A DNA stretch of 54,941 nt, counting the filler, from Jimgerdemannia flammicorona (taxonomy: Eukaryota), in the NCBI GenBank assembly GCA_003990765.1. It is 2 parts of 2 records of this genome, joined end to end, with 100 filler letters (N's around TTAATTAATTAA, not from the genome) between each part and the next. Parts side by side here need not be neighbours in the genome. Positions count along the whole stretch, not along the records: positions 27,524 to 54,941 come from RBNJ01000631.1; 1 more part is not named here. One strand, written 5' to 3'. Both the position numbers and the translations under genes were made by a program. The notes beneath the pieces were generated by a model. That model searched no databases and was not told the origin of the DNA. It worked only from the letters and a program-made list of their open reading frames with translations. Shown one piece after another: positions 6,091 through 53,640 of this stretch (positions are counted from its first letter, which is position 1; every line of letters begins with the position of its first letter).

Positions 6091-6399
6091 GGTGTTTCGT
6101 TTTTTTGTTTTTTGTGTTTTCTCGTTTGAAGGGGGATGGATGACAAATTAAATACCCAAAATCACCACATGACACTCGGGTCACGCGGGTCATTCACTGT
6201 TGAAGGGGGATGTTTAGTGTACATCATAGGGTGGTTCTTCGAAGGAAAGTCCAGTTGGAAAGTCTAGAAAGTCGTGCAGCCGGGGTCAAGTAGGCAAGTC
6301 CGCAGTTGTTGGCCCATGAGCTAAGCCACGTCTCAGGTCTCGTGACTGTTAATTACGGCGATTTCTCTATAACCTAATTCTTGTCACTGATTTGACTGT

Positions 6400-17472: not shown

Positions 17473-18561
17473 TTGTATATATATTTATAAAAATATAATT
17501 TTGAAGATCAAAAGAATAGTAATAGAAAGGTTATTATATATAAAGGCAAATTAGTAAGTATTTAAATATATTAATTAATATATTTGATTACAAAAATACT
17601 AATGGCTCTTTATATATAGTATTCTTTTATATAGTAATTTAATTAATAATTAGTAAATATTACTGTAATTTATATAACTAAAATGATCAATAATAGAATT
17701 TTAGCTATACAGAGAAGAAATAGATAGATAATCTATTATTATCTATCAAAGTTAGTAAATATATATAAAGTCTATATAAGTGTAAAGTATAAGTAAGTGA
17801 TAGTACTAAATCTGTTTGAGTATTGATAAATAATAACTTGAAAGCTTTTCATATACTCTATTAAGCAAAAGATATAATTAGAGCTAAATAATATATAAAT
17901 ATTTTTATTTATTTCTTTAAATGTATTAGCCAAATATATATTATTATTAGTATATTATAGTATATTTATTTATTTATATTTCTTTGTATTTTATATAGAG
18001 ATAAAGTTTTGCAGATATAATAAAGATATAATATCAGATAGAATATAAGTAATTTTGATATTAAATTTTTATAAAATCCATTAAACTAATGATAAGTTTT
18101 GCTCAATAATTTTAATTTTAATAACTTTATTCTATTTGAACTAATATAATCTCTATTGTCTAAAGAAATATAATCATTTTATTTATATTATAATAATTAT
18201 ATAAAATATATATATTTAGTTTATATCTATTTGAATTGGAAATACTACTGTGGTAATTTATTAGATATACTTTTTATTAAAGTCAATAAGTATAATTATA
18301 TTTATATATATATGATCCTTTGCTTTACTCTATATTTAAAGAGAAATTTATATAATATAGATTATACATATAAAGTAGTATCTTTATAATACTCACTCTT
18401 TTCAAAAAGATAAATATTAGTACTGGTATTATTATATAACTCTAAAATAGAATATTTAATAGCTATATATTTAGGGTAGATAGAGTATTGAGTTTAATAA
18501 TTTAACTATTATATAGTATATAGTCAGCTCAAATAATATATAGAGATCTTTATATAAAACC

Positions 18562-19705
18562 TATTGAGATGACAACTCAATATGTCAATATATGACCTTA
18601 TGCTATTCTATCAGATTTATATCATTCATCAGTAATATAGAGAAATATGCAACTTATGCAACTTTAATAAAATATCTCTCTTTATAATAAAGGTTATGAG
18701 CCCTACTAAGTACTAAATAGCTATAGCAAAAATATCTCTTTAAATATACTACATATATATACTAGAAATGTTTGAAAACCAGCCTAGCAATATAAGTATG
18801 GAAATAGACATACTAATTGTAAGTATTCCTCCTATAGGTGTAACCTCAATAAGTATGGGAAATATAGTCTTAGTTATTAGTATAAATATAGTCAAAAGAT
18901 CCATTCTGATCTTCAATGAGAAAGACTATGCTATTTGGGTACTTTATATGATGAATCTCCTTGATAAATGTAGCTTAGTAGAATATATAAAGCTATAAGC
19001 ACTAATTCAAGATTATAATCTCACAAATAATTGCTCAGCATTATACAAAATTATATTTATATTGTTGAACTTGCAAATAAAGCTTATAATACATACTATG
19101 ATAGCTCATAACATGTAAGAGATCCTATATAAGTATCATATACAAGCATCTATATCAAATCAATTCCATCTAAAATCTCAGCTATTCAATTTTTGAATGA
19201 AGCCAAAGAAGAGCATCTGCAATTATACCAGTCATATTGATGATCTAGTGAATTAAGTGAATTCTCTTAGTATGTCTACAGATTGCATTAGTAATAAAGA
19301 TAAGGTTATAGTACTCACAAGAAGACTTCTAAATGTATATAATATTATCATCATAGCTATGTATAAGAGCAGCAGTCTCTCAGACTATGTCTACATAATA
19401 ATGAGTCTTATGAATGAGGAAATATATTAAGGAAATAGTATCAATAATGATAAGAATACTTTCTATGAGTCTTATAGATAAGGTGGTAAACAAGGTCAAA
19501 AATGTAGTCAACAAGATCAGTAAACCCAAACCCAAGCTCAACAATATAATAATAACCAGTCTAGCCAATCAATCAAATATGATGGTTATTGTGAATACTG
19601 CAGCAAGTATGGATATAGAAAATATCAATACTATAACTAAAAAAATTATAAGAAGAGTGGTAAAAATAAGCAATAATGTGAAAAAAGCCAGTATTGGCAA
19701 TATAG
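18562..19705 (+). mobile_element. Ty1/copia 5' fragment (short LTR, PBS, decayed gag), interrupted by Gypsy copy 2
   Basis: LTR of about 130 bp at 18562-18691. PBS GGTTATGAGCCC at 18692-18703 is of the copia type that uses an internal tRNAi-Met fragment. Gag-like FNEKDYAIW and a decayed knuckle GYCEYCSKYGYRKYQY at about 19585-19633. Confidence 0.8.
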
Positions 19706-22700
19706 TGTCATGTAGTGGTCGCTGAGTCCTTTAAATATGCCAGATTCTCTTCAAGATATATCTCTTAGACTAACTCAAGTTTGTTATAAGCAAGTTCTTA
19801 TTGGAGTGCCTTCTCGAGGTCTTATAGTCCTCAAACTTCTTATCTTTAAACGTCTTATTATCTCTTAGATTGCTTGCAAGAAAGTGTATATATTGTACTA
19901 AGAGAAACTGACTTTATTTCAAAGAAAATAAGAGGAGTATTTATACAAAATATAATTCAATGGTTGCTAAGATATAAAGCTAAATATAAATTCCAATAAC
20001 TAAAATATAATGCCAGGACAGGAAAGACTGCTAAGTTTCAGGGTCAGCACTAATGATTATACAGATTTAGAATACTGGTATAATTCAGTATTACCTCAGA
20101 ATGCTGATGCTGGCATAATTCAGTGTAACCAAAGAACTTTAGAGCAGAATGTTCAAGACCATAGGGGCTTCATCCTCATTAGAGGTTAGGATGTCTTTGA
20201 AGGAGATAAGGTCTGCAAATTCATTGTCATTACATAGATTGCACATTTTATATATATCCATGGGAGTGATATCTTGTAGCTCTTGAGTGCTGGCCTGTAG
20301 GAACTCCTGGCAGAGGAGGTTTCCTATTTCATACTCCTACCATATTTGGAGGTATTCAGTAACAATGGTGATCCTTGTTTCCATTTTACAGTAGTAGAGG
20401 ATAAAGTGATAAGGATCTGCAGTATCCAGGTTGACACTAGGAGTCCTTCTTACATGGGTCCTCATGGCTCTTCTGATGTCTTGGAATATCCTTTCTTCAA
20501 CTAAGGTGCCTTGGTGATTCCTTGACCTTGAGGTTTGGTGAGTGGCAGGCATTTTATTTGTAGTAAGTCTTTGAGCTATTTTGGAATTGGTGGGTCTTGT
20601 TGGTTACTGTTACTATGGTTCCTTGATTCTTCTTTTATATTTCTCAAGATGCTTATACTGTGGTCACAATAACTCACAGTTGGTTATCATGCTCATCTTG
20701 TCTGCCATATGATCTTCTTATGCTCTAATCTGGTAGCTTGTAAGGAAAGGCTGTCTCCTGTGCTGATGTTATCATTCTGGGGTCACTGTTACATCTTCCT
20801 CCTGAATAAAGATCTTCTTGAGCATCCTTATTCATTGGTCCAGTCCTGAAAAATTTGCTAATCCTATAACCTCTGGCAAAGGGTTGAAAAGTGATATTTA
20901 TAGACTGGCATCTTCCTTATGTATTTTGGCATGATAGTGAAGGGCCACTCCCTTCATATAAAGCAAGGGCCTGATTCTGATCTTGACCAATCTGTTGACA
21001 GTTTGAACTCCTCTAGTTTTGAAAGTCTCACAGATGAGTAGTTGCTGGTACTGTATTCCTTAGAGAATGGTCCAGACAGATAGTCTGCTGGTCATAGAAC
21101 ATACTATTATGATTCATGAACTAGAACCTCATGGGCAGTCATTATGTTTTGCTTCTCTTGTATAGGTTTATGATACTTCTTGAGTCTGTTCCTATATACT
21201 GTGGTAGGCAGTATGGTCTCTGAGATTTTTCTAAGCCAGAAGATAGTTCCCTTGATATCTTGGATATAGAAAGGTCCTTCCTATTTGGGCTCCAGTTTTT
21301 GTGACCATGAGGCTTCTACTATATTTTGATACAGTAGGACCTTTTCTCCAATTTGGATGGGTTCTAGGGTCTTGTAATTCTTTTCTGTATTCTTTCTTGT
21401 CAGTACTTGTGACTTGATGATGTAATCTTCAGGCTTCTTCCTAATTTGGTATAGTCTCTGGATTTCTACATTGATCTGTCTCCAAGTTAGGTCTAGATTT
21501 GTGGCTGAGGTTCCATCAGAATCTTCTTCTCTAAAGAGCAGTTCCCTTGGGGTAAAGTGTGTACTCTGTAACTGTATGTCTCATAGGACAGAGAGGACAG
21601 TTGGGAGATAATTATCCCAATTCTCATATGTCTCTGAGATCTTCACCAGGATGTTCTTGAGGGTCTTGTTGGTTCTCTCTGTCTATCCATTTCCTTGAGG
21701 GTGGTATGCAGTGGTCTTGATGTGCTGGATCTTGTATTTCTGATACATTATCTTATGGAATCTATTGACAAATTCTATGCTATGGTCTGTTGTGATTTGC
21801 TTTGGTGTCTTGTAGCAGCAGATGATTTCTCAGTGCAGGAAGTCAGCTATAGAGAGGGCATTGGCTTCTTGTAATGCTCCTGCTTCTATCTATTTGGTAA
21901 AGAGGTCTACAATAACTATAATATAGTAGTTTCCTGATAGTGTTACCCAATGATATCTATTGCAATATGGTAGAAGGAGATAGGTTCAATTTTTGATGAT
22001 CCAGATGCCTGGTCTTGCTGATCTTGTTTCTGTTTTTGGTACTTATTACACCCTTTGACAAATTGGTGCAGGTCTTCTTCCATTTTGGGCCACCACATAG
22101 TTCTTCTTATGTGTTGGTTCCTCCTAGGTGTCCTTGCTCATATACTTCCTTCATTACTTGATACTTCTTGTATTTGAGTATTACTAGCTTTCCTTCTTTT
22201 CTGAGTATAGTGTTGTCTAGTTCAAACTATTTCCAAGTCCAGTTGATGATAGTGATTGTCCAGAGTTCAAGGTGGTTGGGCATCTTCTACTGCCCAAGAT
22301 AGCTGATTAATCCATAGTATAACTTCTTATTCATGTTGAGTAATATTGATGGGGGTATTTTGGGGTATCCTTGAGAGTGTATCAGCATTGGTGTTGGTTC
22401 TTCCTGAGTGGTGCTTGACAGTACAGTCATACTCTTACAGCCTGTAGATCCATCTGGTATATATTCCTTTGAGATTCAGAGTATAGAATAGCCAGGCAAG
22501 AGTGGAATGGTCTGTTTGAATAGTGAAGTATTTTCTAGCTAAGTAGTAGTAGAACTTGTCTACTGCCCAAACTACTGCTAAGTATTTGAGCTTACATGAC
22601 TCACAGTTCTGTTCTGCTCTACAGATACCTTGACTTACATAGGAGATGACATATTCATGTCCATCTTTCTTCTGGGCTAGGACTGCTCCAAGTCCTATAG

Positions 22701-25700
22701 TACTTGCATCTGTCTGCAGGATGAATTCTAGGTTCCAATCTGGTCTTTTGAGAATAGGTGCTTGGGTCAACCTGGTCTTGAGTTCATTGAAGGTTTCTTG
22801 GTATTCCTTGGTCCATTTGAATTTGGTTTCCTTCTTCAGTAGCTCATAGATAGGTACTGCAATGTTGGAGTATCCTTTGATGAATCTTCTGTAGTAGCTG
22901 GCCAGTCCAAAGAAGGCATGGACTTCTGTAGTCATTCTGGGTCTCAGGTAGGCTGTAACAGCCTCAATCTTTATAGGGTCTATGTGGATTCCAGTCTGGT
23001 TGATGAGGTGTCCTAGATAGGTGATTTCTTGAGCCACAAACTTGCATTTCTTGGGCTTGATGTAAAGGCCATGCTTCTTGAGCTTCTTGAGGGCTAGCTG
23101 TATATGATTGATATGTTCCCATATAGTGTTGCTGAAGATGATCACATCATCAATATAGACAAAGAGCCATTTTCCAATCTCATTGCTGAAGATTCTATTC
23201 ATCATTTGCTGGAAACTTGCTGGAGCATTGCACATTTCAAATGGCATTCACAGGTAGATATAGGTGGCATCAGGTATGATGAAGGCTGATTTCTCACTGG
23301 TATCTTGAATGAGATCAATCTGATAGAAGTCTGAGAACAGATCCAAGGTGGTGTAGTATTTGGCTTCACTTCCAAGGGTGGTAAGGATTTCTTGAATATT
23401 TGGTAAGGGCTGCCTATCCTTCTTGGTGATGGCATTGAGCTTCCTGTAGTCAATGCAGAGTCTTGGTGCAAACTCTCCAGGCTTGCTTCTTTTCTTTGGG
23501 GTGAGGATAATGGGTGAAGCCCAGGAACTGATAGCTTGCTTGATGATTCTGGCTTCTTCTATTTTCTTGAGTTCTGCTTGCAGCCATTCTCTGTAGGCAG
23601 GTGGTATGGGTTTGGCTTTCTGGTAGATGGGCTTGATATCATCAGTGTCAACTTCATAATAGTACTTGGATTCTTGATTATAGATATCCCTGAAGTCTGT
23701 AGTAAGTACTCCTTCATTCTGATGCAGGATCTTGAGAAGTTGTTCTTCTAGGGGAAAGTTTTCTCTAATAGTATATGTGTACTTGTTCTGGTCATTGTAT
23801 TTCTTGTGTTCAAGTTCAGTAATCTTGGTGGCAGCATAGACTCCTCTTCCAGTAAATCCAAAGTCTTGTTCTTCTCTCTTGGTCTTGATGAGTTCAATGG
23901 CTTCAGTGATCTTAGACTTCTTGATTTCATAGATTAGCATCTGGCTAATTCTATCATGCTTCTTGATTTCGAATGGAGTGGTGGGGTTGTGGTTCCTAAC
24001 TATGAGGAAGATCTTGCCAGAGTAATCAGGATCAATTACTCCTCCTTTAACTGAGATTTCACTTTTGGTCAGACTGCTTCTGGACTTGATAATTCTGGCA
24101 TAGTTTTCTGACAGCTTGACTCCAATTCCAGTGCCAAGTAGGGTGGTGGTCTGTGGTTTAAGAGTAGCATCTTGAATGCTGGCAAGGTCCATTCCTATGG
24201 CTCCTTCAGTCTTGTATTCTGGGATCTTGGCTTCAGGGTGGAACTTCTTGACCTTGAGAGTGATATCTGGTTCTTGTCCTTCCTCATCATCACTGTCAGC
24301 TTGAAGCTCTGGGGGCTGGTCATCTTCTTCAGCTTTTCTTTTTGCTTCAGTAGCTTCTTGCTCATGTTTCTGTTAGCAGATTTTCCTGACTTCACTGATA
24401 CAGGACCAGCAGTCATTTAGGTGTTCAGTGCAGTACATCCTGGTACCATGGGGGCATCTTCCTTGAGGGACATAGCTATCAATAATCTTGTTGTATCACT
24501 GCTCATCTGTGAGCTTGGGTGTTTTGTTCTTGTTCTTGTTCTTATTCACCAAGTACATAAAGACCTCTGTTTCCTCTTCATCTCCTTCCTCTATATCTGG
24601 TAGAACTCCTTTATAGATATTGATAGAGACTTGTACCTTTCTTCCTCTATAGTTGATCTGCATCTTCTAGATATTGAGGTCAATGATGGCCTTGGCCTTG
24701 TGAAGCCATTGGTTGCTAATGAGGATATCATAGTTAGTGGCACTTATAACAATCACATCTACTGGGATGGTAGCTCCTTCTATCTTAATGGGGACTTCTC
24801 AGATTTTGCCAAGGGGGGTAGCTCATGTACTATCTGCTATAACATAGACTATCTTGGTGGACTCTTCAATGTTCCAGCCTAGGCAGTCAATTGTCTTCTT
24901 ACTTATAAGGCATCCTCCAGCACTGGTATCAATGATAGAATCAAAGATACAGTCTTCAATCTGACATGAGGTATAGGCTGATGTCTTGTACTAGTCTTCA
25001 GATTCTTCGGATTCTTTCTATGCATTGAGCTTCTACAATCTTGTACTCTTGATTCTTAACAGTAGTTGCAAGTCCTACTCTCAACTGCTGTCTGAAGACA
25101 GGAACTTTGGCTAGCTGTCCAAAAGTAGCATTGACCTTCTATTCCTTGAGATACTTGTAGATATCATACTGATAGATCTTGGTCTTGTGTAGCTTCTATT
25201 CCTTCTTGCTTTCACTTTCTCCTGAGACTGGAGTAGAGCCTTCAATAATTTGGTGGGCAGCTTTATCTAACTCTATGTCTTGATCAATCTCCTTGGGTTG
25301 AGTCTTACTTTGAATAGTGACAGCTGGAGTCTTCTTTGGTCTTCCAACTGGCTTGCCATTGCTCTTCTCATCATAGAGCTTGGACCAGGTTCTGGTACCT
25401 TCAGTAGCAGGGTAGAATTTAAGCTCTTTGTAGTATTCTTCATCATTAGTATCGCCAATCTCCTTAATGACTACTGCATTAGTTTGTTCTCTGGTTCTGC
25501 TAGCATTGCTTGGTTGGGCTTTGCATCTTGTTTTGGTCATGCAATTCTTTACATAGTGGCCTTCTTCTCTATATCTGAAGTATGTAATATTGTATTCTTC
25601 TGTAGCAGCTGCAAATCTCTGTACTGGTCTCCTGTTAATACTTTGGACTTCTCTAACAACATCATCAAGGTGTGCAGTCATCTTAGTGAACTGCTTGGCA

Positions 25701-27523: not shown

Positions 27524-28342
27524 CATGAGTGGAAAGGGTAAGGCAATAGTTGGCATTTCAATCGCTCTTTTTATCAAAGAAGTTCATTTTACTAAGTTAT
27601 TTCTAATTTCAGATACGTGGAAACTATGCATGAATGCATTCTACACCGCAAAGTGAGAATTTCCTCTCACCTCGACCATCGTTACTTCTATGTCTCGTCA
27701 ACGGGTGGAAACTACTCCTGCGGATTGGCACGTGACACTTTGGCAAGGTTACTCCGCCACTACGGAGAGGACGCTTTTTTCATAACGACAGGGATCACAG
27801 CTTTGAAGGACTTCAAGAACAATTCATCAGTGCTTGGCTTTCTTGTGGAGCAGATGTGTCTCAGTAGCATTGCGCACAAAGGATTGAAGAGCCTAGAATT
27901 CCCGAATATGAAGACCATAGTTTTCACACAACCATATCCCGAATACGATCTATCGCACAAGTACGCACTTTATGTCCCATCGGCTTACAATTTCAAGGCG
28001 ATTGACGGGCTAATTCTGGATTTGTCAAAGGCGAAACAGGCTCATCTTATTCCTATTCAGATCACCATCGCGCAGACACTCTCAAATTCGCAGGAAAACT
28101 TCTATGCAAACTGGAATAATTGGATAGGTCGCTTTCAAAACCACCAACTGCAGACTACGTTCCTTTGGATCGAGAAGAATAAACGAGGGCTGGAAGAACT
28201 GGAGGAGGAGAAAAAGAAACGACGGAGTGGAACCGTATTAGTGCATCCACAATACAACGTACTCCATATCACCGTTGAGGATGTGAATAAAGAACTTGGC
28301 GAAACTCTAGCAAGGGTTCTTGATGGTCGGATTTCCGAATAA
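27524..28342 (+). CDS. 3' part of a Crinkler (CRN/CR)-like protein with a C-terminal restriction-endonuclease-fold domain; exons 27524-27537 and 27613-28342
   Basis: Intron GTAAGG(27538)...CTAA...TTTCAG(27612) splices in frame (HEWKG-YVETMHEC). Motifs GFLVEQ, LYVPSAYNFKAIDGLIL and LIPIQITIA resemble the E...P..NF.AID...QxT signature of CR-REase domains. The frame is intact and CpG is retained. The 5' end is lost at the contig edge. Confidence 0.7.
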
Positions 28343-28490
28343 CGAAATGTATATGAGAGAAGTAGGTTATGGTAGAGAGAGAAAGGGTGGTTTTGTTCTA
28401 ACTGATGTAATAGTATTATTATATATAAATAGTTGCAATTACAGTTATTATGTTTTAATGAGATTATATCTCAGAATATAAAAAAAAAAA

Positions 28491-30642
28491 GAGATTATAT
28501 CTCAGAAGATTAAAGAGAAGAGATTTATTGTTATATTAGAGAATATTAACAAATAAGAGTTAAAGTATAATTATATTAGATATTTATATTATTTATTAAG
28601 AGATAATAAATATATTTTTTTGACTGTTTTGAATCTATATTTAGAGGAAATATTTTAAAAGTTTATAACTTTTAAAATTATAATAGCTTTTAAAAAAAAA
28701 ATGTTAATAATTTTTTATATATTAATTCTATCTTTAGGATATATTTTTAACAGAAAAACAATGTTTCAAAATAACATTTTTTTCAAATTTTAATTTGTCA
28801 GCTAAATGATTTTAAAAGATGATCTTATCTATAATTAAAGAGATAATTAATAGATAGATTAAATATATATACATATTAGTAATTTTGGTTTGTAAATTAA
28901 AATATATTAGTATACTAAAGTAAGGTCTAATAGTATATATAAGAATTTTAATTGAGATATATTATATTTAATAAAACTATATTCTAATAGAATAAATATA
29001 TTTTAAATAATTAGAATAGTCTATTAGCTTTAAGTTCTATATTTTTATGTTTCAATGGCTATAATAATAATATATTTTAGTATTACTTTTAGTTATATAT
29101 ACTATATATATTAAAAAAATATTATATTTATATCTAAGTTTATTAAATTTAGACTTATTAATAAGTTGGATATAGTAAAAGAGAGGCTCTTTATTAAAGT
29201 TACATAAATTGCATATTTTATGTATTACTGATAAATAATATATATTTGATAGAATAGCATAAGTTATATATTGATATATCAAGTTACAATCTCAATACTC
29301 CTGCTCAATAAGATATATAATCCAAAAAGAATGCAAACTAGATTAAAAAAATAATAATAAAGTAATACAATGAATACAAAAACTTGAACTACATATAATA
29401 CAAAAAATTATATATATAAAATCGTATATCTAAGAAATTTTTGCAGATTAAAAAGTATTCTGTAATATGTGAAATCCTTATAAAAATCCACTTATAGATG
29501 AGAGATATATATAGTAAAAATGTAAGATATAAGAGATAATAATACAAATATAGAAAGGGAAGTCTTTTGAGAATCTGAAAAAAAAAAAAAAGATATTATA
29601 TCTCAGAAGATTAAAGAGAAGAGATTTATTATTATATTAAAGAATGTTAACAAATGAGAGTTAAAGTATTAATATATTAGATATTTATATTATTTATTAA
29701 GAGATAATAAATATATTTCTTTGAATGTTTTGAATCAATATTTAGAGAAAATATTTTAAAAGTTTAGCTTTTAAAAAAAAAAATTCAATAATTTTTTATA
29801 TATTAATTCTATTTTTAGGATATATTTTTAATAGAAAAACAATGTTTCAAAATAAAATTTTAATTTATCTGCTGAATGATTGTAAAAGATGATCTTATCT
29901 ATAATTAAAGAGATAAATAATAGATAGATTAAATATATATACATATTAGTAATTTTGATTTATAAAATAAAATATATTAGTATACTAAAGTAAGGTCTAA
30001 TAATATATATAAGAATTTTAATTGAGATATATTATATTTAATAAAACTATATTCTAATAGAATAAATATATTATAAATAATTAGAATAGTTTATTAGCTT
30101 TATTTTTAAGTTTCAATTGCTATAATAGTAATATATTTTAGTATTACTTTTAGTTATATATATATTATATATATTAAAAAAATATTATATTTATATCTAA
30201 GTTTATCAAATTTAGATTATTAATAAGTTGGATATAGTAAAAGAGAGGCTCTTTATTGAAGTTACATAAATTGCATATTTTATATATTACTGATAAATAA
30301 TACATATATATTTGATAGAATAGTATAAGTTATATATTGATATATCAAGTTACAATCTCAATACTCTTGCTCAATAAAATATATAACCCAAAAAGAATGC
30401 AAACTAGATTAAAAAAATATAATAAAGCAATGCAATGAATACAAAAACTAGAACTACAAATAATATAAAGAATTATATATATAAAATCCTATATCTAAGA
30501 AATTTTTGCAGATTAAAAAGTATTCTATAATATGTAAAATACTTATAAAAATCCAATTATAGATGAGAGATATATATAGTAAAAATATAAGATATAGAAG
30601 ATAATAATGCAAATATAGTAAGAAAATTCTTTTGAGAATCTG

Positions 30643-30655
<13 letters not shown>
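28491..30655. repeat. Tandem duplication of about 1.1 kb (28491-29590 / 29591-30655), each unit ending in GAGAATCTG-poly(A)
   Basis: Both units start with ATTATATCTCAGAAGATTAAAGAGAAGAGATTTATT and are colinear. Each contains a minus-strand copia 3' LTR (starting 29297 and 30363) and a PPT. Confidence 0.88.
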
Positions 30656-30693
<38 letters not shown>

Positions 30694-30694
30694 A

Positions 30695-30778
<84 letters not shown>

Positions 30779-32390
30779 TGATTAATCACTAAACTGATAT
30801 GTATATTGTTTATAAGATCCATTCTATTAATGTATAGCTCAAACTTTGACTTTGAAAGAACTTTTATAAGTAAATCAGCAATCATATATTTTGTAGAAAT
30901 ATATTCTAAGTATATAGTATTATTTTCTATATATTTATAAATGAAATAATACTATATATTGATATATTTCATTCTTATAATATACTGGATTCTTGGTAAG
31001 TATAATTATAGACTGATTATTTTGATATAGTATAGAGCTCTATTTATGAGCAAATGTAAGTTCTTTTAACTATTTACAGTGCTAAATAGATTTCTTTATT
31101 ATCAATAATAATGCCTGGTACTTTGTCTATATTGATAATATTGTCATAAATGATTACTTATATATTTGCCATAAGATGATAGACTCTTGGTCATTTTCAT
31201 TAATATAGAAGAGGTATTTAGTTATAGATTAGTAGTCAGTAAGATTACTTTTCCAATTGATATCTGATATGCTAAATAGCCAAATATTATTCTTCTTGTT
31301 ATTTCTCTAGCTATTATTATTATTTAATATAAGTATATATTATATCATATCCTTAAGATATCTAAATATTCTCTTGACAATACTTTAATATGAATTATCA
31401 TAGCAGGATAAATACTTTACTACCTTATTTATAATATATAATATGTTAGGTCTCATTTTTAGTAAAAGATACATTAGAGAACTGACTGCTAGCTAATATA
31501 ATATATTGAATTATTTAAGGATTCTTTAAGTATATATCACTTATAAGAGATATATAGTATATATATATATTTCTATTATATATGATAGATATTACTAAAA
31601 AGAAAGATATATTACCCATATTTGTTAACTTTAACTCTATTAAGTCTATTCTTACTAGTAATAATAATTATATCATTAACTTAGATATTAATAAGACTAT
31701 ACTGCCATCATTATAAAATTAGATATATATGTAATTATCTGCTTTACAGTAGGTGCATCTATCATCAAGAAGATATTTATTAATCTTTTTATTCTACAAT
31801 TGTACTACTTACTTAATACTATATATTTATATAGTTTATATATGAGTTCACCTTTTTTATATTCTTGCAGTTGATGGATATATAGTTTAGTATCTATGTC
31901 ACTATTTAGAAATACTGTCTTAATATCTATTTGATGGATTTCTAGGATATATATATAGTATACTAATTATAAGAAGTATTCTAAGAGAAGTAATTTTGAA
32001 TATTAGTAAAAATGTCTTGTCATAATCTATATCATAATATGGCAAATTACTCTAAGTAACAAAATGAGCTTTATATTACTCTATATTTTAGTCACTCTTA
32101 TGCTTAATTCTATTGACCCACTTGAATTCAATTATTAGGCAATTTTATAGAAGAGGTGTGAGATTTTACATGCTATTCTCAATAAGTAAATCATATTACT
32201 CATTTATCATATATTCTCATTTTTTGTTATCTTAGAATTATATGACTTTCTCATATTTATTTATCTCATCAGATTTTGCAATATACATACATTCATTTAT
32301 ATACTTCAACATAGCTTATCTGATCTTGATATTACTATTACCTAGGGCTAACTAGTATATCTCAATAACTTTCTAATTTAGAATCAAACA
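30225..32390 (-). mobile_element. Ty1/copia 3' relic (RT, RNase H, T-rich 3' UTR, PPT, 3' LTR), 5'-truncated at the first telomeric junction
   Basis: Decayed motifs EIHQIDIKTVFLNSDID (about 31895-31945), NQSIIILTKNPVY (about 30980-31020) and MIADLLIKVLSKSKFE (30885). LTR at 30363-30225 is homologous to 18562-18691, with a purine tract at 30364-30372. Confidence 0.82.
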
Positions 32391-32400
32391 TAGGATTAGG

Positions 32401-33816
32401 CTTTAAGTAAGGATTTATTCATTATAGTGAAGATAAGGAGTTATAAATAGCAAAGACTTCTAAGATGAGAAAAATAAAAAGAGAGTAGTGAAGTAATCAA
32501 CTAGCTAAAAAAATAAACCAAAGACCAGAGAGGTGACCACCTTATGGATAAACTGGAGAAACCTTTTAGTCATATCTATAAGGATAACAAAATGCAAAAA
32601 GCAAAAAGAGAGAAGCTAAAATAAAATATACAAAAGCTCAGCACCAACTATAGAGACAATATTGACCTCAAACACTAAGTAACTAATATGAGATATATAA
32701 CTCAATATACTCTCAACAATAAAGAAATATGTCAAGGCAAATGAAGGGAAAGATTAAAATAAAAATAATATTCAATTGCTCAATTACTTAAGTATCTTCA
32801 TAATTTTGATTAGATAGGATCTAACTGTAATATGGTCACTAGAATTATACATAGTATCTATAGTATAATAGGTTATCTTATAAAGAGCATAAAAAGAGTA
32901 AATACAAAGTTCCTTCTACCATTCATCACTAGTGAACTAATTGAGTTGCTCATGACTAGAATCATCTTAGAATGCAGAATACAAACTGTTGAGAAGACTG
33001 TATCTATAGAGATAACTATGATGAAACTTATCTCTACAGGAGTAGAGGTAGGGTTGTCTAAAGTAGTTATAATACTAGACAAGAGCAGAAGTATAAGTTG
33101 GGAGAAAAAGAAAAGGATATAATCAGTCCTCTATGATTGTAAGCTACTATAGAGTGTGATATACCAAATGAGAGCCTGAGAAGAGGAGGCTCATTCCTAT
33201 AGTAACTGATCTCAAAGGAAGGACTGGAGGAAGGAGTAGAGTAAGTGAGTCTTACAGACTATCCCAGTACTAGTTGAGGAAGTTAAGCTAAGAGATTCAA
33301 TACTAGAACTTATCAATGATAGAACCTAGGAGATATATGACAAAGCACTCTCTCAGAGGACCAATGGGGTTATTACCGGACTTACCACACTAATCTAAAT
33401 AAGCTTAGAATATATAGCAGAGGTCTGATATATGATAAAGAAAGGAAGAGAGGGCAAGAATTAAACTGCAAAATAAGAATTAGCTGGAAACCCCAACTGC
33501 TTAAACAACATTATCATCAAAGAGCTATTTGAGATATTTCAGTAACTGAAGCCCTATAGTAGTAGCTAGAGAGGAAGTTTATAGAAGTAAAAGGTCATAC
33601 TCCAGCTGAGGTCTAATGAAGATATAAATAATGGCTAGCTTGACTATTAGTGATCAGAGGGGACTATAGATATAGTAGAACCCAAGAGTTCATTCTACCT
33701 ATCCTCCATTCTATAATATCAGACTGACAAAGTCAAATTTCTTATTTATATATGGCATGCTCAGATATATAGAGAAAGAGGGTTGCAGATATAGGTCACT
33801 AACAATCAGAATAGTA
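32401..33816 (-). mobile_element. Telomere-associated non-LTR retrotransposon, unit 1 (5'-truncated, heavily mutated)
   Basis: Begins TAGGATTAGG|CTTTAAGTAAG, a decayed form of the junction. Colinear with the 3' 1.4 kb of the other units and the most AT-rich copy. Confidence 0.88.
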
Positions 33817-33832
33817 TAGGGTTAGGGTTAGG

Positions 33833-45134: not shown

Positions 45135-48100
45135 CTTCAAGTAAGGATTTATTCATTGTAGAGAAGATAAGATACATCGGAGTAACAAAAGGCAAAGACT
45201 TCTAAGATGAGAAAAGCAAAACAAGGCCAGCGAAGTAAACAACTAGCTAAGAAGTACAAACAAATGCCAGAGAGGTGACCACCCTATAGATGGGCTGGAT
45301 AAAACTATTTTGTCATAGCCGTAAAGATGAAAATGTAATAAGCAAAGAAAGAAAGGTTAAGATAAAATACACATTTGTCTGGCACCAGCTATAAGGATCA
45401 TATCAACAACTAAACTCCAAGCGACTAACATGAGATGAATAACTCAATGCACTCTCACCAACGGGGAACCAACCAGGACAAATGAGGGGGAAGAAAGAAA
45501 TAAACAAAATGTGCGATCACTCGATCATCCAAACATCTTTGTAATCTCAGTCAGGCAGAACCAGACCACAAGATGGCTACCAGAGTTACACATGGCATTA
45601 TAGCATAGTAGGCTGTCTCATGAAGAGCATGAAGGGGGTAGGTGCAAAGCTCCTTCTGCCATTTATCACTAGTAAACCAATCGAGCTGTTCATCACGATC
45701 AGAAGAACCTCGGAAAGCAGAATATGAGCCATTAAGAAGACTGTACCACCACGATGAAACTTATCTCCACAGGGGCAGGGGTGGGGTTGGCCAAAATAGC
45801 CATAGTGCCAAGCAAGGGCAGAACGCACAAGCTGGGGGGGGAAGGAGAGGACACGGTCAGCACCCCGCAACTGCAAGTGGCCTTTGGGCGTGGTATACTG
45901 AACAAGAACCTGGGATGAGGAAGCCCATTCCTGCAGCAGCTGGTCCCAAAGAAAGAACTGGAGGTAGGAGCAGAGCGAGCGAGTCTTATGGACCTGGGGA
46001 CGAAGGTCCCAGTACCAGTCGAGGAAGTCAAGCCAAGAGGTCCAATGCTGGAACTTGTCAATAATAGAACCCGGGAGAAGTGTGACAAAGTGCTCGCTAA
46101 GGGGGCCAATGGGGTTGTTACCCAACTTGCTACACCAATCCAGGTGGGCTTGGAACATGTAGCAGAGGTCAGATGTATGATAAAGGAAGGAAGAGAGGTC
46201 AAGAATTGTACTCCCAAGCAAGGGATGGCCTGAAAATCCAACCGACCAAGCGATACTATCATCAAAGACCTGCTCGGGACGCTTCAATATCTGAAGCCCC
46301 ATGGTAGTAGCCAGACAGGAAGCTTGTAGAAGGGAGAGGCCATACTCCAGCTGAGGCCTGATGAATGTTTGTACGATGGACAACTTGACCATTGGCGACC
46401 AGAGGGGACCACGGGTATAGCAGAACCCAAGGGTTCATTCTGCCTTTGCTGTATTCTGCAATGCAAGGTTGATAAAGTCAAACCCTTTGTTGGTGTATAG
46501 CATGCTCAGGTACACATAGGAGGCGGGTCATGGGCAGGGTTTACCTCCAATCAGCACAGTACAGTCAGCCGGGCCAACATAACTACACTTCTTGGGATTG
46601 AGCTCTATACCATTCATCTGGAGCCAATCCTCGTAAAAATCAACCATTCTTTGCCCTTCTGCGGCAGTGCAGGGGTAAGGGTGATATCATCAGCAAAGAA
46701 AAGCCTGAGGGGGAAGTTGTACTCCTTGAACTACTCATCAAAGGAGGCGGCGAAGAGATCGATAAAGACATCAAATAGCTAGGAGGAGAGGAGGGAGCCC
46801 TGAAAGAGGCCATGCTCAGTGGGGACTGAAGGGGTGATGAGGCTATTGACAACCACCTGGTAAGAACAGTGATTGAACAGGCTTCAGATAATGCTAAGGA
46901 GGGCCGCATCGGTATCTCACGCCTCAAGGTGGGAAAGAATGCACTTGAGAGGGACTCGATCATATACCTGCCGGAGGTCCAGGAAGACACAGCAGCTCCA
47001 TCCCTTAGCCCACATCTCGTGCAATAACAAGATAAGAGAAAGGGACGAGAAGCGATTTCGGAAGCCACCTTGGCAATGTGACATTTCTGTCAGACCGCTT
47101 CGGCTATAGATATATCCTTCCAAACACTGCTCAAAGAGTCTACGAAACATTTCAGTCAGAGCGATAGGGCGAAATCCATCGATTGTTCGCGATTCCTCCT
47201 TCTTGGGGACCGGGGTGATGATGGCTGAGTTCCAGTGGTTGGGAGTGAGCCCCCAGACCATGCATATCTAGAAGAAGAACAAGAGGGCCTTCGAAAGGCT
47301 ACAGGGGGTGTCCATCTCACCTGCCATCACCCAAAGGATCTGGACATATAAGGAGTTGATACCACATACCTTTGAGAGAGGGTAGCTGCAGACAGCTCTC
47401 CAAACCACAGGTTGGTCAAATCAAGACTACAGCCCAAGAGCGCCCACGCCAAGGGAGAAGACATCCTCAGAGTCATCGAGGCAGAGGGAGATATCCGGTT
47501 GGCCGAAGATAGTGATAAAGTGAGCAACCACGTTATCGAACACCGGGACATTGTGGGAGTGGGACTGAAGGAGTGCAGAGGGGGTGGAGTGGTATGCTTG
47601 CTTAAAACCATGGATGGCATTAGAGACTGAGGTTGCACTGTAAAGGAGGTCATGCCTGGAGAGCAGCACCACTCTGATTTCTCTTGTATCATATGAGTCA
47701 AGAATGTCCTCACAGACTGACTGTAGACCAGAGGTCAAAAGGGCTCAAGGGAGTTCACAAACTGCTGGCGATCTTCCATGGAGTAAAAGCTGGCGATGTG
47801 GTCCCTGACAGAGTAGATAGACCTGATAATGGTATCGCAAACGATATCCGCTGATTCCCAAAGGTGAGCTTAGATGACCGGATTGGTCTGGTATCTCGCA
47901 GAGTAATGACGGATACCAGCCAAGGTGACAACCAGTGAGAGAGAGAAGGGGAAGGAGATGGTGAGGAGAGAGAGGTGATTGGTAGTGACAGGAGAGGTGG
48001 ATCAGGTGAGGGACGTGTGGAGGGATACGGTGGCAAACGTGCGGTCAACACGTGTGGATCCAGCCACTGAGGTCAGGTGGTTCAACGACCATGTCATCAA

Positions 48101-50151
48101 GGAGGTGTCGACAACATCCATTCGATCACAAGGACCAGAGTTGACATCACCAAGGCAGGCACCGAAGCAGGTATTGATGTCACTGATCAAAAGAGCCTTA
48201 CCCGGGAAGGGTCCAGACACCAGATCATGGAAGCCACCAATGGGAAGAGAGGGGTGGGCATAAACCCCAACCAAAGCCAAGTCCTGGAACATGAGCCGGA
48301 TATGGAAGGGGTTGGCAGAGGACCTGGAAATGAGGGGAGTGAAACAGTTTGACACAAGGACTACGAGACCACTATTCTGGTGACCCACGATCCTGTGCGA
48401 CACCGGAGGAGAGGACATGTGAATGAGTAGAGAGGGATGCAGTAGAATATACCACGTTTCACATATGAAAAGAACATCGAGGGCAGGACCAATCAACTGA
48501 CTGAGCACATCGAACTTGTCCTGAGGTAGTTCATGTGTATTGAGGAACCCGACTCTCATTGTGGGCCAGGTGCATTAGTGCCAACAGTGTGGGAAGTACC
48601 TGAGGTAGAAGCTTCGGCTTCCAAATCCATTACCATATCACCAGTCATGGCTACAGTACCACCTGCCTTCGAAGCAGGGCCGGCTGACAGGGAGACAGGG
48701 GAGGGGAGAATGAGGCCGAATTCCGTGGCCCAAGCTTGGTAGAAGGTCTGCACCTCGGGCCTCTTCGCAGTGGCTTCGCCCTCCAGCTGCCAGACCCAAG
48801 CATGGAATGATTGGAGTACCCATGTCTTCACAGCCTCCATGGCATTCTTGTTGCATGGGAGCGCGGGGTCCCAGGCCGACAGCACCAAGAACCTGAGCAC
48901 CTTCATCTTCTTATGGAACGCCGTGACATAATCAGGGTGGAGCAGGAATTCGATGGTCAATGCTGAGATATATGACATATTGAGAACTTTAGACAACATC
49001 ACATGGACGTCATACAAGTTCTTCTGAATCTGCCTGATCTTAAGATAGGCAAATCCGTCGACATAAATGCACTGAAGCCTAGCGCCCTTCTCAGTCAGCG
49101 ACAAATGAGAGGTCAGCTTGCAGGTCATGTGCAAAAGGGCAGCGGCGGCAGCTGCTCTTTCCATCTCGGGGTTGGCCTGGGTTCTATCCTTGATAGAAAC
49201 CTTCTTGGCAGCAGCGGTGTACGATTTGGGGGGGGTGGGGGTCGAAGCGGAGGACGAAGATGGGCTGGTGGCGCTGAGACCTGCAGGCGTAACCTGGGGC
49301 ACTGGCGCACCAGACTGTGACACAGTGGCTTTAGCGGCCCGCTTGTCCGCTCACTTCTGGGCCTTTGACCATATGTTCGCGACAGGACCAGTAGGAGGGG
49401 GGGCCGAGGACTTGGGGTGGGCGGATGTAGAAGGGGCGGTGGAGGTACTTCCCAAAGGAGCACCAGATGACGAGAGGGCAGTTGGCGCATGATGCGCAGC
49501 AAGCTGCGCCATCAGCTGGGTGTTGATTTTGGCCAGTTCGGCCACTTGAGTCAGCAGATCCTAGACTGCTTCCTCATCGCAGCCATTTCCATGATGAAAT
49601 CAGGGTCGGCTGAGGGGCCCGCACGACCGGCTGTTGTGGTCATTCCCAAACTAGTGTTCGGGTGACCACGCTTGTTCCGATTGAGGGGTGGGGGCATGGG
49701 AGAATAGGGGGGGCATGGGAGAATAGGGGGGGTGCTGGGTGTCATGGTCCGAATCGGAAGAGATCGCGATCTCTTCGTCATCTTCCGCATCGTGCAGGGA
49801 AGATAAATACACCGATATCGGTCGTGCATCCCCGCATGACCTGCACATCGCCATAAGGCTACCCTCACCGAAGCTGAGGGAGAGAAGACCAGTGCCGCGA
49901 TATTCAGCGTAGCGAAGAGCGATGCTGAAGCGCGCGAAAAGGTGAGTGGCGTTGCCATCATTGCCGATGACGGAGGAGGTGGCCGACATTGCCGAAATAG
50001 GCGAAGGTGTGTTTGTTTGTGTTTGTGAAATTGTGAAATGTAGGTCACGTGACCTTTGTTTGTACAATGAAAAAATAATGAGGAAGGGGGGTATTTATAC
50101 CCAATGGGAGGCTTAGCTAATCAAAGTGACTGCTTTCTTAATTTGGAATAG
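45135..50151 (-). mobile_element. Telomere-associated non-LTR retrotransposon, unit 5 (near full length, lacks about 50 bp of the 5' end)
   Basis: Preceded by TTAGGTTAGG. ORF1 49989-48556; ORF2 48559-45525 starting MRVGFLNTH..LFICETW (APE N-terminus). Confidence 0.95.
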
Positions 50152-51328
50152 GGTGAAGGTTGTGAGATTTAAGCAAAGATTTGTGCAAGAAATCGACAGA
50201 GTCGAGCAATAGCCATGTTAGATCGTGGAAATCTTTCGAACATCTCTCGTCAGACTTGCTATTGCTTAAATACCTTTCACTTGTCTGCTTCGGACTTAGT
50301 AATTGGTTACTGTTTATACAATGTAACATGAATTTAATCATGAACGAGAGTGAATTACTTCGCGGGTTTTACAATCGGGTAGCTTTGATTCACTGATCAA
50401 ATTGCATTAAAATAAAATTTTAATTAAGTTGTAATTGTATTACCGAGCGATTTTTCTTTTAAGATTAGGGTCAGGCGCGTGCTACCGATTAGAATAAAAC
50501 ACACATTGCACAGTGCAGGAAAAGGAAAGACGCAGTGTAACATTTTATGACCAGTCATGTTTATTACAGGGGCGTTTTGCCTGCCATAGATAACACCTTC
50601 TTGTTCTGCTTCTCAACTAGCTTCTTTAAGTTGAGACCGCGATAAATAACTGGGCTGTACTTCACAGAACAGTGTTTTGACAGAGTATTCATCACTCTGG
50701 CTGCCAAAGACAGTGCACGACGATGGTAATGATTACCAGAGTAGTTATGCATGTAAGGCGTAACATTAATCTCACTGAGCTTAGGGCCAGAATCTTCATT
50801 ATTCACACGAGATTCCTCTGAAAGCATTCAGGAGCGGTCTTGATAAGATTTAAGACTCAAAAGATAAGCTATCCGATTCGGTTTAAAGGCACGTCGTACC
50901 AAGAACTGATGGAATTCGGAGATAGCTTCTTCATAATTGTCATACTCTGATGAGTTCCGGATAAGGCGAGTATTCTCGTCTCTAAGCCATCCATCGATGT
51001 ACACTTGAGGATAATACGTATCCAGTATAGAGTAAATATGAAGGTTCATATCCTTATTATAGTTTCGGAACTGAATTGACCAAGTCTTATCAGCGTTGAG
51101 TTTCACATATGCTTTGAGATCGCAAAACGTAACTTCATTAGCTATGTGTTGTGTGAAATACAAACTAGAGCTCATCATTTCCAACGATGTTATAACATGC
51201 TTTGCAGCTTCGTCGCCCTTATCTGTAATAATAATGATATCATCGATAAATCGAAAGTAAAGTTCCGGCAAAATCCCTTGGTCATCAAGCCTAAGTTCAT
51301 GAAAGGCCATAAAGAGATTTGCTACATT
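50152..51328 (-). mobile_element. 5'-truncated endonuclease-deficient Penelope-like element (Coprina/Athena-like)
   Basis: Frame 51331-50564 reads PNVANLFMAFHE..YFRFIDDIIII..VTFCDL..YNKDMNLHIY..GWLRDENTRLIRNSS..FLVRRAF, i.e. the PLE RT C-terminal motifs and thumb. One in-frame TGA at 50828-50830. The 87-aa tail has no GIY-YIG motif. Unrelated to the flanking LINE. Confidence 0.88.
50205..50266 (-). ncRNA. Type I hammerhead ribozyme in the PLE 3' region
   Basis: Minus strand reads AGCAAUAGC-AAGU-CUGACGA-GAG(AUG)UUC-GAAA-GAU(UUCCACG)AUC-UA^-ACAUG-GCUAUUGCU. It has the intact CUGANGA/GAAA core, short stem II, stem III, a CUA cleavage triplet and a 9-bp distal stem I. Confidence 0.85.
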
Positions 51329-51348
51329 GGGTTAGGGTTAAGGTTAGG

Positions 51349-53640
51349 CTTCAAGTAAGAATTTATTCATTGTAGAGAAGATAAGATACATCGGAGCAAC
51401 AAACGGCAAAGACTCCTAAGATGAGAAAAGCAAAACAAGGCCAGCGAAGTAAACAACTAGCTAAGAAGTACAAAAACAAAGGCCAGAGAGGTGACCACCC
51501 TTTGGACGGGCTGGATAAAACCATTTTGTCACAGCCATAAAGATAATAAATGCCAGAAGCAAGAAAAGAAGTGCTAAGATAAAATACACATTCGCCCGGC
51601 GCCAACTACAGGAACGATATCGTCAACTGAACACCAAATGACTGACATGAGATGAATAACTCAATGCACTCTCAACAACGGGGGAACCAACCAAGGTGAA
51701 TGAGGTGAAAGAAAGAAATAAAGAAAATGTGCAATCGCTCGATCACCCAAGCATCTTCGTAATCTCGGTCAGGCAGAACCCGACTGCAAGATGGCCACCA
51801 GAATTGCACATGGCGTCGATAGCATGGTAGGCTGTCTCGTGAAGAGCGTAAAGAGGGTAGGCGCGAAGTTCTTCTTGCCATTCGTCACCGGTAAACCAGT
51901 CGAGCTGTTCATCTCGATCTAAAGAACCTCGGAAAGCAGAATACGAACCATCGAGAAGACCGCACCTGAGGAGATGGCCACAATGAAACTTATCTCCACA
52001 GGGGCAGGGGCGGGGTTGGCCAAAATAGCCATAACGCCAGGCGAGGGCAGAGCGCACAAGCCGGGGGAGGGAAGGAGAGGACATGATCGGCTCCCCTTGA
52101 CTGTAAACGGCCTTTGGGGGTGATATACTGAATGAGAGCCTAGGAGGAGGAGGCCCATTCCTGGAGCAGCTGGTCCCGAAGGAAAGACTGGAGGAAGGAG
52201 CAGAGCGAGCGAGTCTTGCGGACCTGGGGACGAAGGTCCCAGTACCTGTCGAGGAAGTCAAGCTAAGATGTCCATCGCCGGAACTTGTCAATAATAGAAC
52301 CCGGGGGACGTGTGACAAAATGCTCACTAAGGGGGCCGATGGAGTTGTTGCCCGACTTGCTACACCAATCCAGGTGGGCTTGGAACATGCAGCAGAGGTC
52401 AGACGTACGACGAAGAAAGGAGGAGAGGCCGAGAATCGAACTGCCAAGCAAGGGATGGCCGGAAAATCCAACCGCCCAAGCGACAGCATCATCAAAGACC
52501 TGCTCGGGATGCTTCAACACCTGAAGCCCTGTGGTAGTAGTCGGACAGGAAGCTCGTAGAAGGGGGAGGCCATACTTCAGCTGGGGCCTGATGAAAGTAC
52601 GTACGATGGCCAGCTTGACCATTGGCGACCAGAGGGGACCACGGGCGCGGCAGAAACCAAGAGTTCGTTCCGCCTTTGCTGTATTCTGCAAAGCTAGGTC
52701 GACAAAGTCAAACCCTTTGTTGGTGTACGGCACGCCCAGGTACACGTAAAAGGTGGGTCGCGGGCAGGGTTCGCCCCCAATCAGCACAGTACAGTCAGCA
52801 GGGCCAACATAACTACACTTCTTGGGATTGAGCTCTATACCGTTCGCCCGGAGCCAGTCTTCATAAAAATCAACCATCCTTTGCCCTTCCGCAGCAGTGC
52901 GGGGGGTAAGGGTGATATCATCAGCAAAGAAGAGCTCGAGGGGGAAGTCGTACTCCTTGAACTATTCATCAAAGGAGGCGGCGAGGGGATCGATAAAGAC
53001 ATCAAAGAGCCAGGGGGAGAGGAGGGAGCCCTGGAAAAGGCTGCGCTCAGTGGGGACCGAAGAGGTGATGAGGCCATTAACAACCACCTGATAAGAACAG
53101 TAATTGAACAGGCTTCGGATAATGCTAAGGAGGGCCGCATCGGCACCTCGCGCCTCAAGGCGGGAAAGAATGTACTTGAGGGGGACTCGATCATAATCCT
53201 GCCGGAGGTCCAAAAAGACACGGCGGCCCCATTCCTTAGCCCACGTCTCGTGCGATAACAGGACGTGAGAGAGGGACGAGAAGCGGGTTCGGAAGCCACC
53301 TTGGCAGCGCGACATTTCTGTCAGGCCACTTCGGCTCTTGACATATCCTTCCAAACATCGCTCGAAGAGTCTACGAAACATTTCAGTCAGAGCAATAGGG
53401 CGAAATCCATCAATCGTACGCGATTCCTCCTTCTTAGGGACCGGGGTGATGATGGCTGAGTTCCAGCGGCGGGAATTGAGCCCCCAGACCATGCACATCT
53501 GGAAGAAGAACGAAAGGGCTTTCGAAAGGCTACAGGGGGCGTCCTTCTCACCTGCCATCACCCGAAGGATCCGGACGTGCAAGGAGTCGGTACCGCATGC
53601 CTTAGAGAGGGGGTAGCTGCGGACAGCCCTCCAAACCGCA
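51349..53640 (-). mobile_element. Telomere-associated non-LTR retrotransposon, unit 6 (5'-truncated, about 2.3 kb; RT + CCHC)
   Basis: Preceded by GGGTTAGGGTTAAGGTTAGG (51329-51348). ORF pieces 52962-53582, 52263-52877 and 51743-52495. Few disruptions; CpG largely retained. Confidence 0.95.

Follow-up and report, generated by a model that had tools for sequence, protein, structure and literature searches.

A Penelope-like element between LINE-like copies

The window analysed here, a whole stretch of 54,941 nucleotides (filler included) joined from two records of the Jimgerdemannia flammicorona genome, carries on its minus strand, from 33.8 kb to its end, a head-to-tail chain of LINE-like elements with RVT_1 and a C-terminal Cys/His motif. 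Each of these LINE elements ends in ...AATAAATTCTTACTTGAAG, followed by 10–17 nt of CCTAAC-type repeats, and on the plus strand TTAGGG repeats lie at 33817, 34684, 45125, 51332 and 53643. Between two of the LINE copies we found a Penelope-like element (PLE) of 1183 bp that is truncated at its 5′ end and runs from 51331 to 50149 on the minus strand. Its GC content is 0.39, against 0.51–0.53 in its neighbours. The features at this part of the locus are the following.

45135..50151, minus strand: LINE-like copy that carries the PLE at its 5′ end (BLAST homology)
50149..50161, minus strand: 3′ tail of the PLE, AACCTTCACCCTA, two degenerate reverse-complement telomeric units that form the end of the element (soil contig; LINE homology)
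50149..50563, minus strand: 3′ untranslated region (UTR) of the PLE, 415 nt, in which a hammerhead motif begins 297 nt after the stop codon
50564..51331, minus strand: reading frame of the PLE, 5′-truncated (phmmer relatives, alignments, translation)
51332..51348, plus strand: telomeric G-strand repeats, TTAGGGTTAAGGTTAGG, capping the PLE where its 5′ end is truncated (sequence and BLAST)

The reading frame starts in the middle of the reverse transcriptase (RT), after the QxxGxAMG motif (PNVANLF...), continues through RFIDD and a thumb-like region to the C-terminus, and contains one in-frame TGA at 50830–50828. When 167 aa of this frame were compared by phmmer with 1.84 billion representatives, 349 relatives were obtained at E ≤ 1e-3, the best of which (P0001, 667 aa) scored 5.4e-30 with 41% identity. 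An alignment of 24 relatives revealed that ADKNLG is common (with A, D and K individually present in 90% or more of the rows), and that PKLHK, RPIVP, DVxSMYTNI, QxxGxAMG, YxRYLDD and the thumb motif WIxGENIRLIRNSS are shared as well. According to the accessible text of a 2026 paper on Coprina-1_Alen from A. lentis, DKN, RT1–7 and thumb make up the layout typical of PLEs (PMC13159263). The copy in the window retains only RT5–7 and the thumb, and the DKN-type motif is known from its relatives. Other protein searches were less specific. The fragment itself had no match in Pfam, none in a word-based search among longer proteins and no relatives in viral_contigs, and a PDB profile search returned generic RT matches only, TERT included, which do not discriminate. 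Its atlas neighbours carry PF26215 (HTH_animal), some of them together with RVT_1.

No GIY-YIG domain follows the RT in the window, and among 18 long relatives Pfam identified RVT_1 in 15 and GIY-YIG in none. The last 55 residues of the frame align to residues 600–652 of P0001, about 15 residues short of the end of that protein; the frame therefore stops approximately where P0001 stops, which leaves no room for an endonuclease. We conclude from these protein comparisons that the element is a 5′-truncated, endonuclease-less (EN−) PLE. Its assignment to Coprina, from the TTAGGG telomere type and the missing endonuclease, is our best guess. The endonuclease-less, telomere-attaching nature of the element was absent from the sequence-only reading that preceded this analysis.

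The 3′ boundary was located with a second copy, found in a soil-metagenome contig (run X1, record 2, 436 nt) that matches 50149–50440 with 10 differences (approximately 97% identity over 292 nt) and continues past 50149 with 144 unrelated letters. Because the likeness of the soil contig stops at 50149, with a different flank beyond, we place the end of the PLE at this position. On the G strand of the soil contig, ...GGGGGGT precedes TAGGGTGAAGG, and on the minus strand its tail continues ACCC...; over the junction, the plus strand reads ...GGGGGG-T|TAGGG-TGAAGG in the soil copy versus ...GGAA|TAGGG-TGAAGG in the window. Homology of the adjoining LINE copy starts at 50151, and CTA (TAG on the plus strand) is shared between the PLE tail and the LINE 5′ end. 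This LINE copy lacks the first 51 nt of two full-length copies, and a loose end at 50151 in run X3 indicates that another copy has a longer LINE 5′ end.

At the other end of the element, the truncated RT frame adjoins CCTAACCTTAACCCTAACCC on the minus strand, that is, G-strand repeats on the plus strand, by which the antisense cDNA was extended. These repeats, at 51332–51348, carry the 3′ end of the next LINE copy. The telomere association of EN− PLEs is found here as a repeat-capped 5′ truncation together with reverse-complement telomeric sequence at the 3′ terminus. Both junctions fit the model for EN− PLEs, as set out in the accessible text of two papers, in which the C-rich tail primes on a chromosomal 3′ end and telomerase caps the cDNA (PMC13159263; PMC6431247). 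The junctions suggest that the C-rich tail of the element RNA would have paired with an exposed G-strand 3′ end at a chromosome end, which in this case would have lain within the 5′ end of a LINE copy, sharing CTA/TAG with the tail. The RT of the element would then have copied the RNA from that chromosomal primer, synthesis would have halted inside the RT gene, and telomerase would have capped the truncated cDNA with TTAGGG repeats, another LINE being added later.

The copy in the window is decayed. Its TGA at 50830–50828 is CGA in the soil copy (C at 50830). Among at least 27 listed differences over the element, the window has A or T where the soil copy has G or C in 20 and the reverse holds for 5, the other 2 being transversions; such a shift towards AT is of the kind left by RIP or deamination. 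Truncated at the 5′ end, interrupted by an in-frame stop, AT-shifted and devoid of a promoter of its own, the window copy is a dead relic. Another contig of run X1 extends 197 nt past the 5′ truncation point, and longer PLE copies therefore exist elsewhere. The sequencing runs with this stretch were three soil-metagenome DNA runs of one study, in small shares, with no RNA run among them.

A hammerhead motif in the 3′ untranslated region

Sequence inspection of the minus strand between 50266 and 50205 revealed all conserved core bases of a hammerhead ribozyme and its three helices. The parts of the motif, and what follows it up to the tail, are listed here in the 5′ to 3′ direction of the RNA.

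50205..50266, minus strand: type-I hammerhead motif as a whole, the sole descriptor match in the window
50266–50258, minus strand: 5′ strand of stem I, AGCAAUAGC
50257–50254, minus strand: proximal part of the 5′ strand of stem I, AAGU
50253–50247, minus strand: hammerhead core CUGACGA, C3 to A9
50246–50244 and 50240–50238, minus strand: helix II, GAG and UUC, with the loop AUG between them
50237–50234, minus strand: hammerhead GAAA, with G12 to A14 at 50237–50235
50234–50220, minus strand: helix III, AGAUU and GAUCU, with the 5-nt loop UCCAC
50219, minus strand: H17, an A, with the predicted cut between 50219 and 50218
50218–50205, minus strand: 3′ strand of stem I, ACAUG followed by GCUAUUGCU
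50204–50194, minus strand: hairpin CGAC-UCU-GUCG directly 3′ of stem I, predicted in the minimum free energy (MFE) fold
50162..50193, minus strand: spacer of 32 nt from the hairpin to the telomere-like tail

The core of a type-I hammerhead is complete (C3 U4 G5 A6 N7 G8 A9, G12 A13 A14 and an H17 that is not G), and so is the topology, with helix I open and the 5′ and 3′ ends of the RNA both in helix I. Helix I consists of 3 proximal pairs with an A.A mismatch and a bulged G, followed by 9 continuous pairs. Helix II has 3 bp (G-C, A-U and G.U, with G10.1-C11.1 at 50246/50238) and a triloop, and helix III has 5 bp, counting A15.1-U16.1 (50234/50220) and one U.G. Helix III with its loop, AGATTTCCACGATCT, differs from its own reverse complement and is non-palindromic. 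The cleavage triplet CUA and a C at position 7 are permitted in hammerheads, other choices being commoner.

The hammerhead parts and coordinates given by the sequence-only reading were all correct on the minus strand. It had drawn stem III as GAU/AUC with a 7-nt loop; the coordinates stand, and the helix extends to 5 bp with a loop of 5 nt. It had also put the ribozyme about 65 nt from the 3′ junction of the PLE, which agrees with a predicted cut 70 nt from 50149. The tail, 13 nt long with 2 mismatches to (CCCTAA)n, begins 43 nt from the ribozyme, and the element ends 56 nt past it. The 3′ module reads, in order, as an RT frame without endonuclease, 297 nt of UTR, the hammerhead, a 4-bp hairpin, the 32-nt spacer and the 13-nt tail.

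How often such a motif arises by chance was estimated with a type-I descriptor built on the CUGANGA and GAAA elements. Helices II and III each needed 3 bp or more, helix III had to end in U, H17 could be any base but G, and of the 4 proximal stem I pairs no fewer than 3 had to form; the distal 9-bp stem I was unneeded. On both strands of the window the descriptor matched once, at 50266–50205, and two looser descriptors still gave this hammerhead as the sole match within the window. Shuffled windows (300 shuffles, dinucleotides kept within 2-kb blocks) contained a mean of 0.01 matches, with any match in 3 of the 300, which corresponds to 0.01 expected matches per 110 kb of both strands.

Covariance models, proposed earlier as a check, did not report the motif: Rfam (with Hammerhead_1, RF00163, and related families) yielded 0 matches at gathering score over the whole window, and at E ≤ 10 no hammerhead family came up in the 701 and 101 bases around the motif. 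On the opposite strand a plastid 3′ UTR model matched at E = 8.6, which is explained by nothing more than the 9-bp inverted repeat. As a control, 20 loci encoding related RTs were searched at gathering score, again with 0 hammerheads, and 8 of these 20 Rfam-silent loci carry descriptor matches; the silence of Rfam on the PLE hammerhead therefore weighs little.

Relatives of the element provided a further control. A bulge-allowing descriptor (the usual 1-nt bulge before helix II) identified hammerheads in 12 of 59 distantly related loci, on the RT strand and downstream of the RT match, and in 0 of the same 59 on the opposite strand. These comprise 57 metagenome loci, found with a 3-row protein alignment and all distant (22–43% identity), and 2 MAG contigs. 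Because the 57 metagenome loci are distant and carry a different, mostly metazoan-type hammerhead (as in L049 and L058) or none, they are unusable for covariation of the window motif. The exact-helix pattern of the window hammerhead had 0 matches in genome_contigs and viral_contigs.

The proposal of a type-I hammerhead near the 3′ end of a PLE was borne out, since descriptor, protein relatives and alignments agree. Its identity as a PLE hammerhead is well supported by motif, position, strand and context. We consider it likely that the motif is the hammerhead ribozyme of the 3′-terminal module of an EN− PLE of the Athena/Coprina kind, most like fungal Coprina.

Folding, cleavage and competing readings

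Predicted folding energies do not favour the hammerhead form. Its secondary structure reaches −9.1 kcal/mol, compared with −17.3 kcal/mol for an alternative fold, about 8 kcal/mol more stable, that keeps distal helix I and pairs or buries the core. Helix II alone amounts to 0.0 kcal/mol and helix III alone to −0.8; the hammerhead fold is lost in the MFE structure of the full 415-nt UTR, and the 77-nt hammerhead stretch has a folding z-score of only −1.89. Two copies cofold 8.3 kcal/mol better than two monomers, via an extended duplex and not via the hammerhead. We put the catalytic competence of the window sequence at near even odds.

In the soil copy, 2 of the 10 differences fall within the 62-nt motif, as expected by chance. 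One changes A to G in loop III (50226) and the other changes U to C at helix I position 1.4 (50215), breaking a U-A pair; in this comparison with one other copy, neither change is compensatory. The bases of the catalytic core are kept in both copies, and the hairpin at 50204–50194 has no difference among those listed for the soil contig. The alternative fold at −17.3 kcal/mol is unaffected by both differences.

These data bear on several other readings of the motif. That an AT-rich untranslated stretch resembles the hammerhead consensus by chance is very improbable: the missing Rfam match, the weak helices and the 3 shuffled windows in 300 with a descriptor match would be in line with it, as would the lack of covariation data, a single other copy having been compared, but the low expectation was obtained before the unrequired 9-bp distal stem I was taken into account. 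In addition, the match lies on the sense strand of a 415-nt UTR, in a kind of element known for hammerheads, and the relatives have the motif on the sense strand (12 of 59 loci) and never on the antisense strand. Less easily set aside, but still unlikely in our view, is that the motif derives from a hammerhead but is inactive in cleavage, whether here or throughout the family, and serves only as a 3′ structural handle offering the tail to the RT or the chromosome end, a weak helix II and a competing fold keeping the site uncut. The energies of the two folds, the 0.0 kcal/mol of helix II and the loss of the hammerhead in the UTR structure all agree with this, and any copy that was integrated must stem from RNA left uncut at the site. 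Against it, both copies keep all the catalytic core bases, which a purely structural role would not need, and nearest-neighbour energies leave out the tertiary contacts of the hammerhead core. Moreover, a fungal PLE hammerhead cleaves as a monomer, according to the accessible text of its description (PMC4209133).

The sequence-only reading had instead proposed a minimal PLE hammerhead, active as a dimer or otherwise conditionally, that processes read-through transcripts of the co-oriented chain; we regard this as improbable. In its favour, the hammerheads of metazoan PLEs are of the minimal kind and cleave in dimeric form, as stated in the accessible text of the same source (PMC4209133), the retroelements of the chain are indeed co-oriented, and the two-copy cofold is the more stable one, though its duplex is no hammerhead. 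However, the motif cannot be called minimal, since a 5-bp helix III with a 5-nt loop resembles the monomer-active fungal variants described there (PMC4209133), and since helix III and its loop are non-palindromic, two copies gain no extended helix III from pairing. The window holds one PLE copy and one hammerhead; the terminal repeats to which the hammerhead had been ascribed are absent from it, as this 5′-truncated copy has no pseudo-LTR and a BLAST search of 50100–51760 against the window returned no second PLE piece. Processing of read-through chain transcripts looks unlikely here because the LINE upstream of the PLE is 5′-truncated, has no promoter and carries AATAAA approximately 20 nt before the junction.

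The preferred reading, a hammerhead of the EN− PLE 3′ module, would assign the ribozyme its role in active master copies. Published work on the family suggests that it would fold there as a monomer, that it may act as a 3′ fold presenting the tail, and that self-cleavage may shorten precursor RNAs that are multimeric or result from read-through. An integrated copy must derive from a template whose own 3′ hammerhead had stayed uncut. Integration did include the DNA on the 3′ side of the scissile bond, as had been pointed out, but this is not peculiar to the window copy: the design of EN− PLEs puts the reverse-complement telomeric repeats downstream of the hammerhead, going by the accessible text of one report (PMC6431247). 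Retention of the 3′ DNA is the rule in the family, since that DNA holds the priming tail. An elaboration that we judge doubtful, with a probability between those of the non-cleaving handle and the dimer, is that the ribozyme is gated, the competing fold shielding the tail, or that the 12-pair helix I retains the cleaved tail and the RT crosses the nick. If gated, the core would be buried in the full-length template, leaving the tail uncut before reverse transcription, and cleavage would occur only in another context, such as in read-through precursors or upon protein binding. If true, gating or nick crossing would explain why DNA 3′ of the scissile bond is present in all telomere-attaching PLE copies.

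Comparison with known systems

The EN− PLE module was reportedly described by Gladyshev and Arkhipova in 2007 and by Arkhipova and colleagues in 2017 for Athena (bdelloid rotifers, Terminons) and Coprina (fungi). Minimal, dimer-acting hammerheads of metazoan PLEs are said to have been treated by Lunse, Weinberg and Breaker in 2016/17. The window element resembles the Athena and Coprina EN− PLEs in its RT without GIY-YIG, its sense-strand hammerhead near the 3′ end, its C-rich telomere-complement tail downstream, its repeat-capped 5′ truncation and its place in a head-to-tail terminal chain. It differs from them in that the tail amounts to about two degenerate TTAGGG-complement units, 43 nt off the ribozyme and not adjoining it, whereas reverse-complement telomeric repeats are found immediately downstream of the hammerhead fold in EN− PLEs, according to the accessible text of Arkhipova & Yushenova 2019 (PMC6431247). 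Its partners in the chain are LINE-like elements and not PLE units, and it is attached to a non-telomeric 3′ end via a 3-nt overlap. The accessible text of Craig et al. was a further source against which the 3′ module was compared.

Hammerheads were found in all PLEs examined by Cervera & de la Pena 2014, whose accessible text sets apart two kinds: telomere-associated PLEs of fungi and protists have type-I variants that are stable as monomers and possess a large helix III, and metazoan PLEs have the minimal dimeric hammerhead (PMC4209133). The hammerhead of a Serpula lacrymans PLE, for instance, cleaves there as a monomer, with rates of 1.97 per min in 10 mM Mg and 0.16 per min in 1 mM Mg (PMC4209133). 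The window motif resembles such fungal hammerheads in being of type I with a sizeable helix III, which would allow a monomer to fold, and in the unusual sizes of its helices I and II with no obvious loop–loop tertiary motif. Its very short helix II (3 bp and a triloop) sets it apart from them, in a comparison made by description, the published sequences being given in figures only. With the hammerheads in the pseudo-LTRs of metazoan EN+ PLEs it shares the catalytic core, the type-I topology and the association with a PLE RT. In the metazoan minimal type, however, helix III spans 1–2 bp, its loop is small and palindromic, and helix II is often preceded by a bulged base, unlike the 5-bp helix III, the non-palindromic loop and the unbulged junction of the window motif. 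The consensus core and three-helix junction are also those of the Rfam hammerhead families, the reporting thresholds of whose covariance models it misses.

Collectively, the sequence comparisons identify the module as the published EN− PLE arrangement, here in a form whose spacer is longer and whose tail is short and degenerate. This arrangement has already been described for fungi and rotifers, and the window case is one more example of it. Here the module sits at a junction where a PLE joined a non-telomeric chromosome end within a LINE-like chain, and the element supports the published model of terminal retrotransposition without extending it.

The Penelope-like element and its soil counterpart

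The endonuclease-deficient, 5'-truncated Penelope-like element (PLE; 51331-50149, minus strand) was compared with a second copy, assembled in contigs of X1, a soil-metagenome DNA sequencing run. The in-frame TGA at 50828-50830 reads CGA in the soil copy and, in 20 of the 27 differences among those listed for 50149-51331, the window carries A/T and the soil copy G/C. Judged on these base differences, the window copy has shifted towards AT in the manner of RIP or deamination. Within the 3' UTR of the PLE, a segment roughly 90 nt long (50411-50507) showed a contig depth 5-10 times that of the neighbouring stretches in two of the soil runs (in X1, 52-70 vs 6-10), with contigs broken on either side. 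This segment may be common to a more abundant repeat.

One soil contig from X1 fuses LINE position 50151 directly to 51341, skipping the PLE's 1189 bp; the 51341 side of the joint consists of telomere repeat plus a LINE 3' end. This joint is either an arrangement from which the PLE is missing or a LINE-LINE junction that formed independently and shares the same 5' end. If it is an independent junction, LINE 5' ends may recurrently fall at CTATTCC, that is, at a start site.

PLE-like reverse transcriptases in bacterial bins

Two of the 59 distantly related PLE reverse transcriptase loci scanned for hammerheads, L058 (2693-2990) and L059 (about 2440-2736), lie on contigs of bacterial metagenome-assembled genomes titled Aquabacterium and Enterovibrio. 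CCCTAA repeats occur on both contigs, as do genes for distant PLE-like reverse transcriptases. L058 contains a minimal hammerhead as well, the palindromic ACTAGT lying at its helix III. These contigs look like eukaryotic contamination of bacterial bins.

The LINE-like chain and low-GC tracts

The following features were delimited in the window:

33817-54941, minus strand: head-to-tail LINE-like chain of at least six copies
6001-8000, 18001-20000, 28001-32000; 32396-32799: tracts whose GC is very low (0.18-0.26)
22435-24192, minus strand: LTR-retrotransposon pol gene fragment with dUTPase, RVT_1 and RNase H domains

Two copies in the chain are full-length, each of about 5.3 kb, and the remainder are 5'-truncated. 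Every copy terminates 3' with AATAAATTCTTACTTGAAG; CCTAAC repeats, 10-17 nt long, come immediately after it, and poly(A) is absent from the 3' ends of the copies across 33817-54941. All these 3' ends face lower coordinates, and the copies are more decayed in that same direction. One low-GC tract contains a LINE 3' end, at 73% identity after decay, together with a CCTAATCCTA remnant; the tracts probably belong, as old and mutated members, to the same terminal array. The chain looks like the product of stepwise terminal addition, with the chromosome end towards higher coordinates, a mode of addition like that of telomere-specific non-LTR elements.
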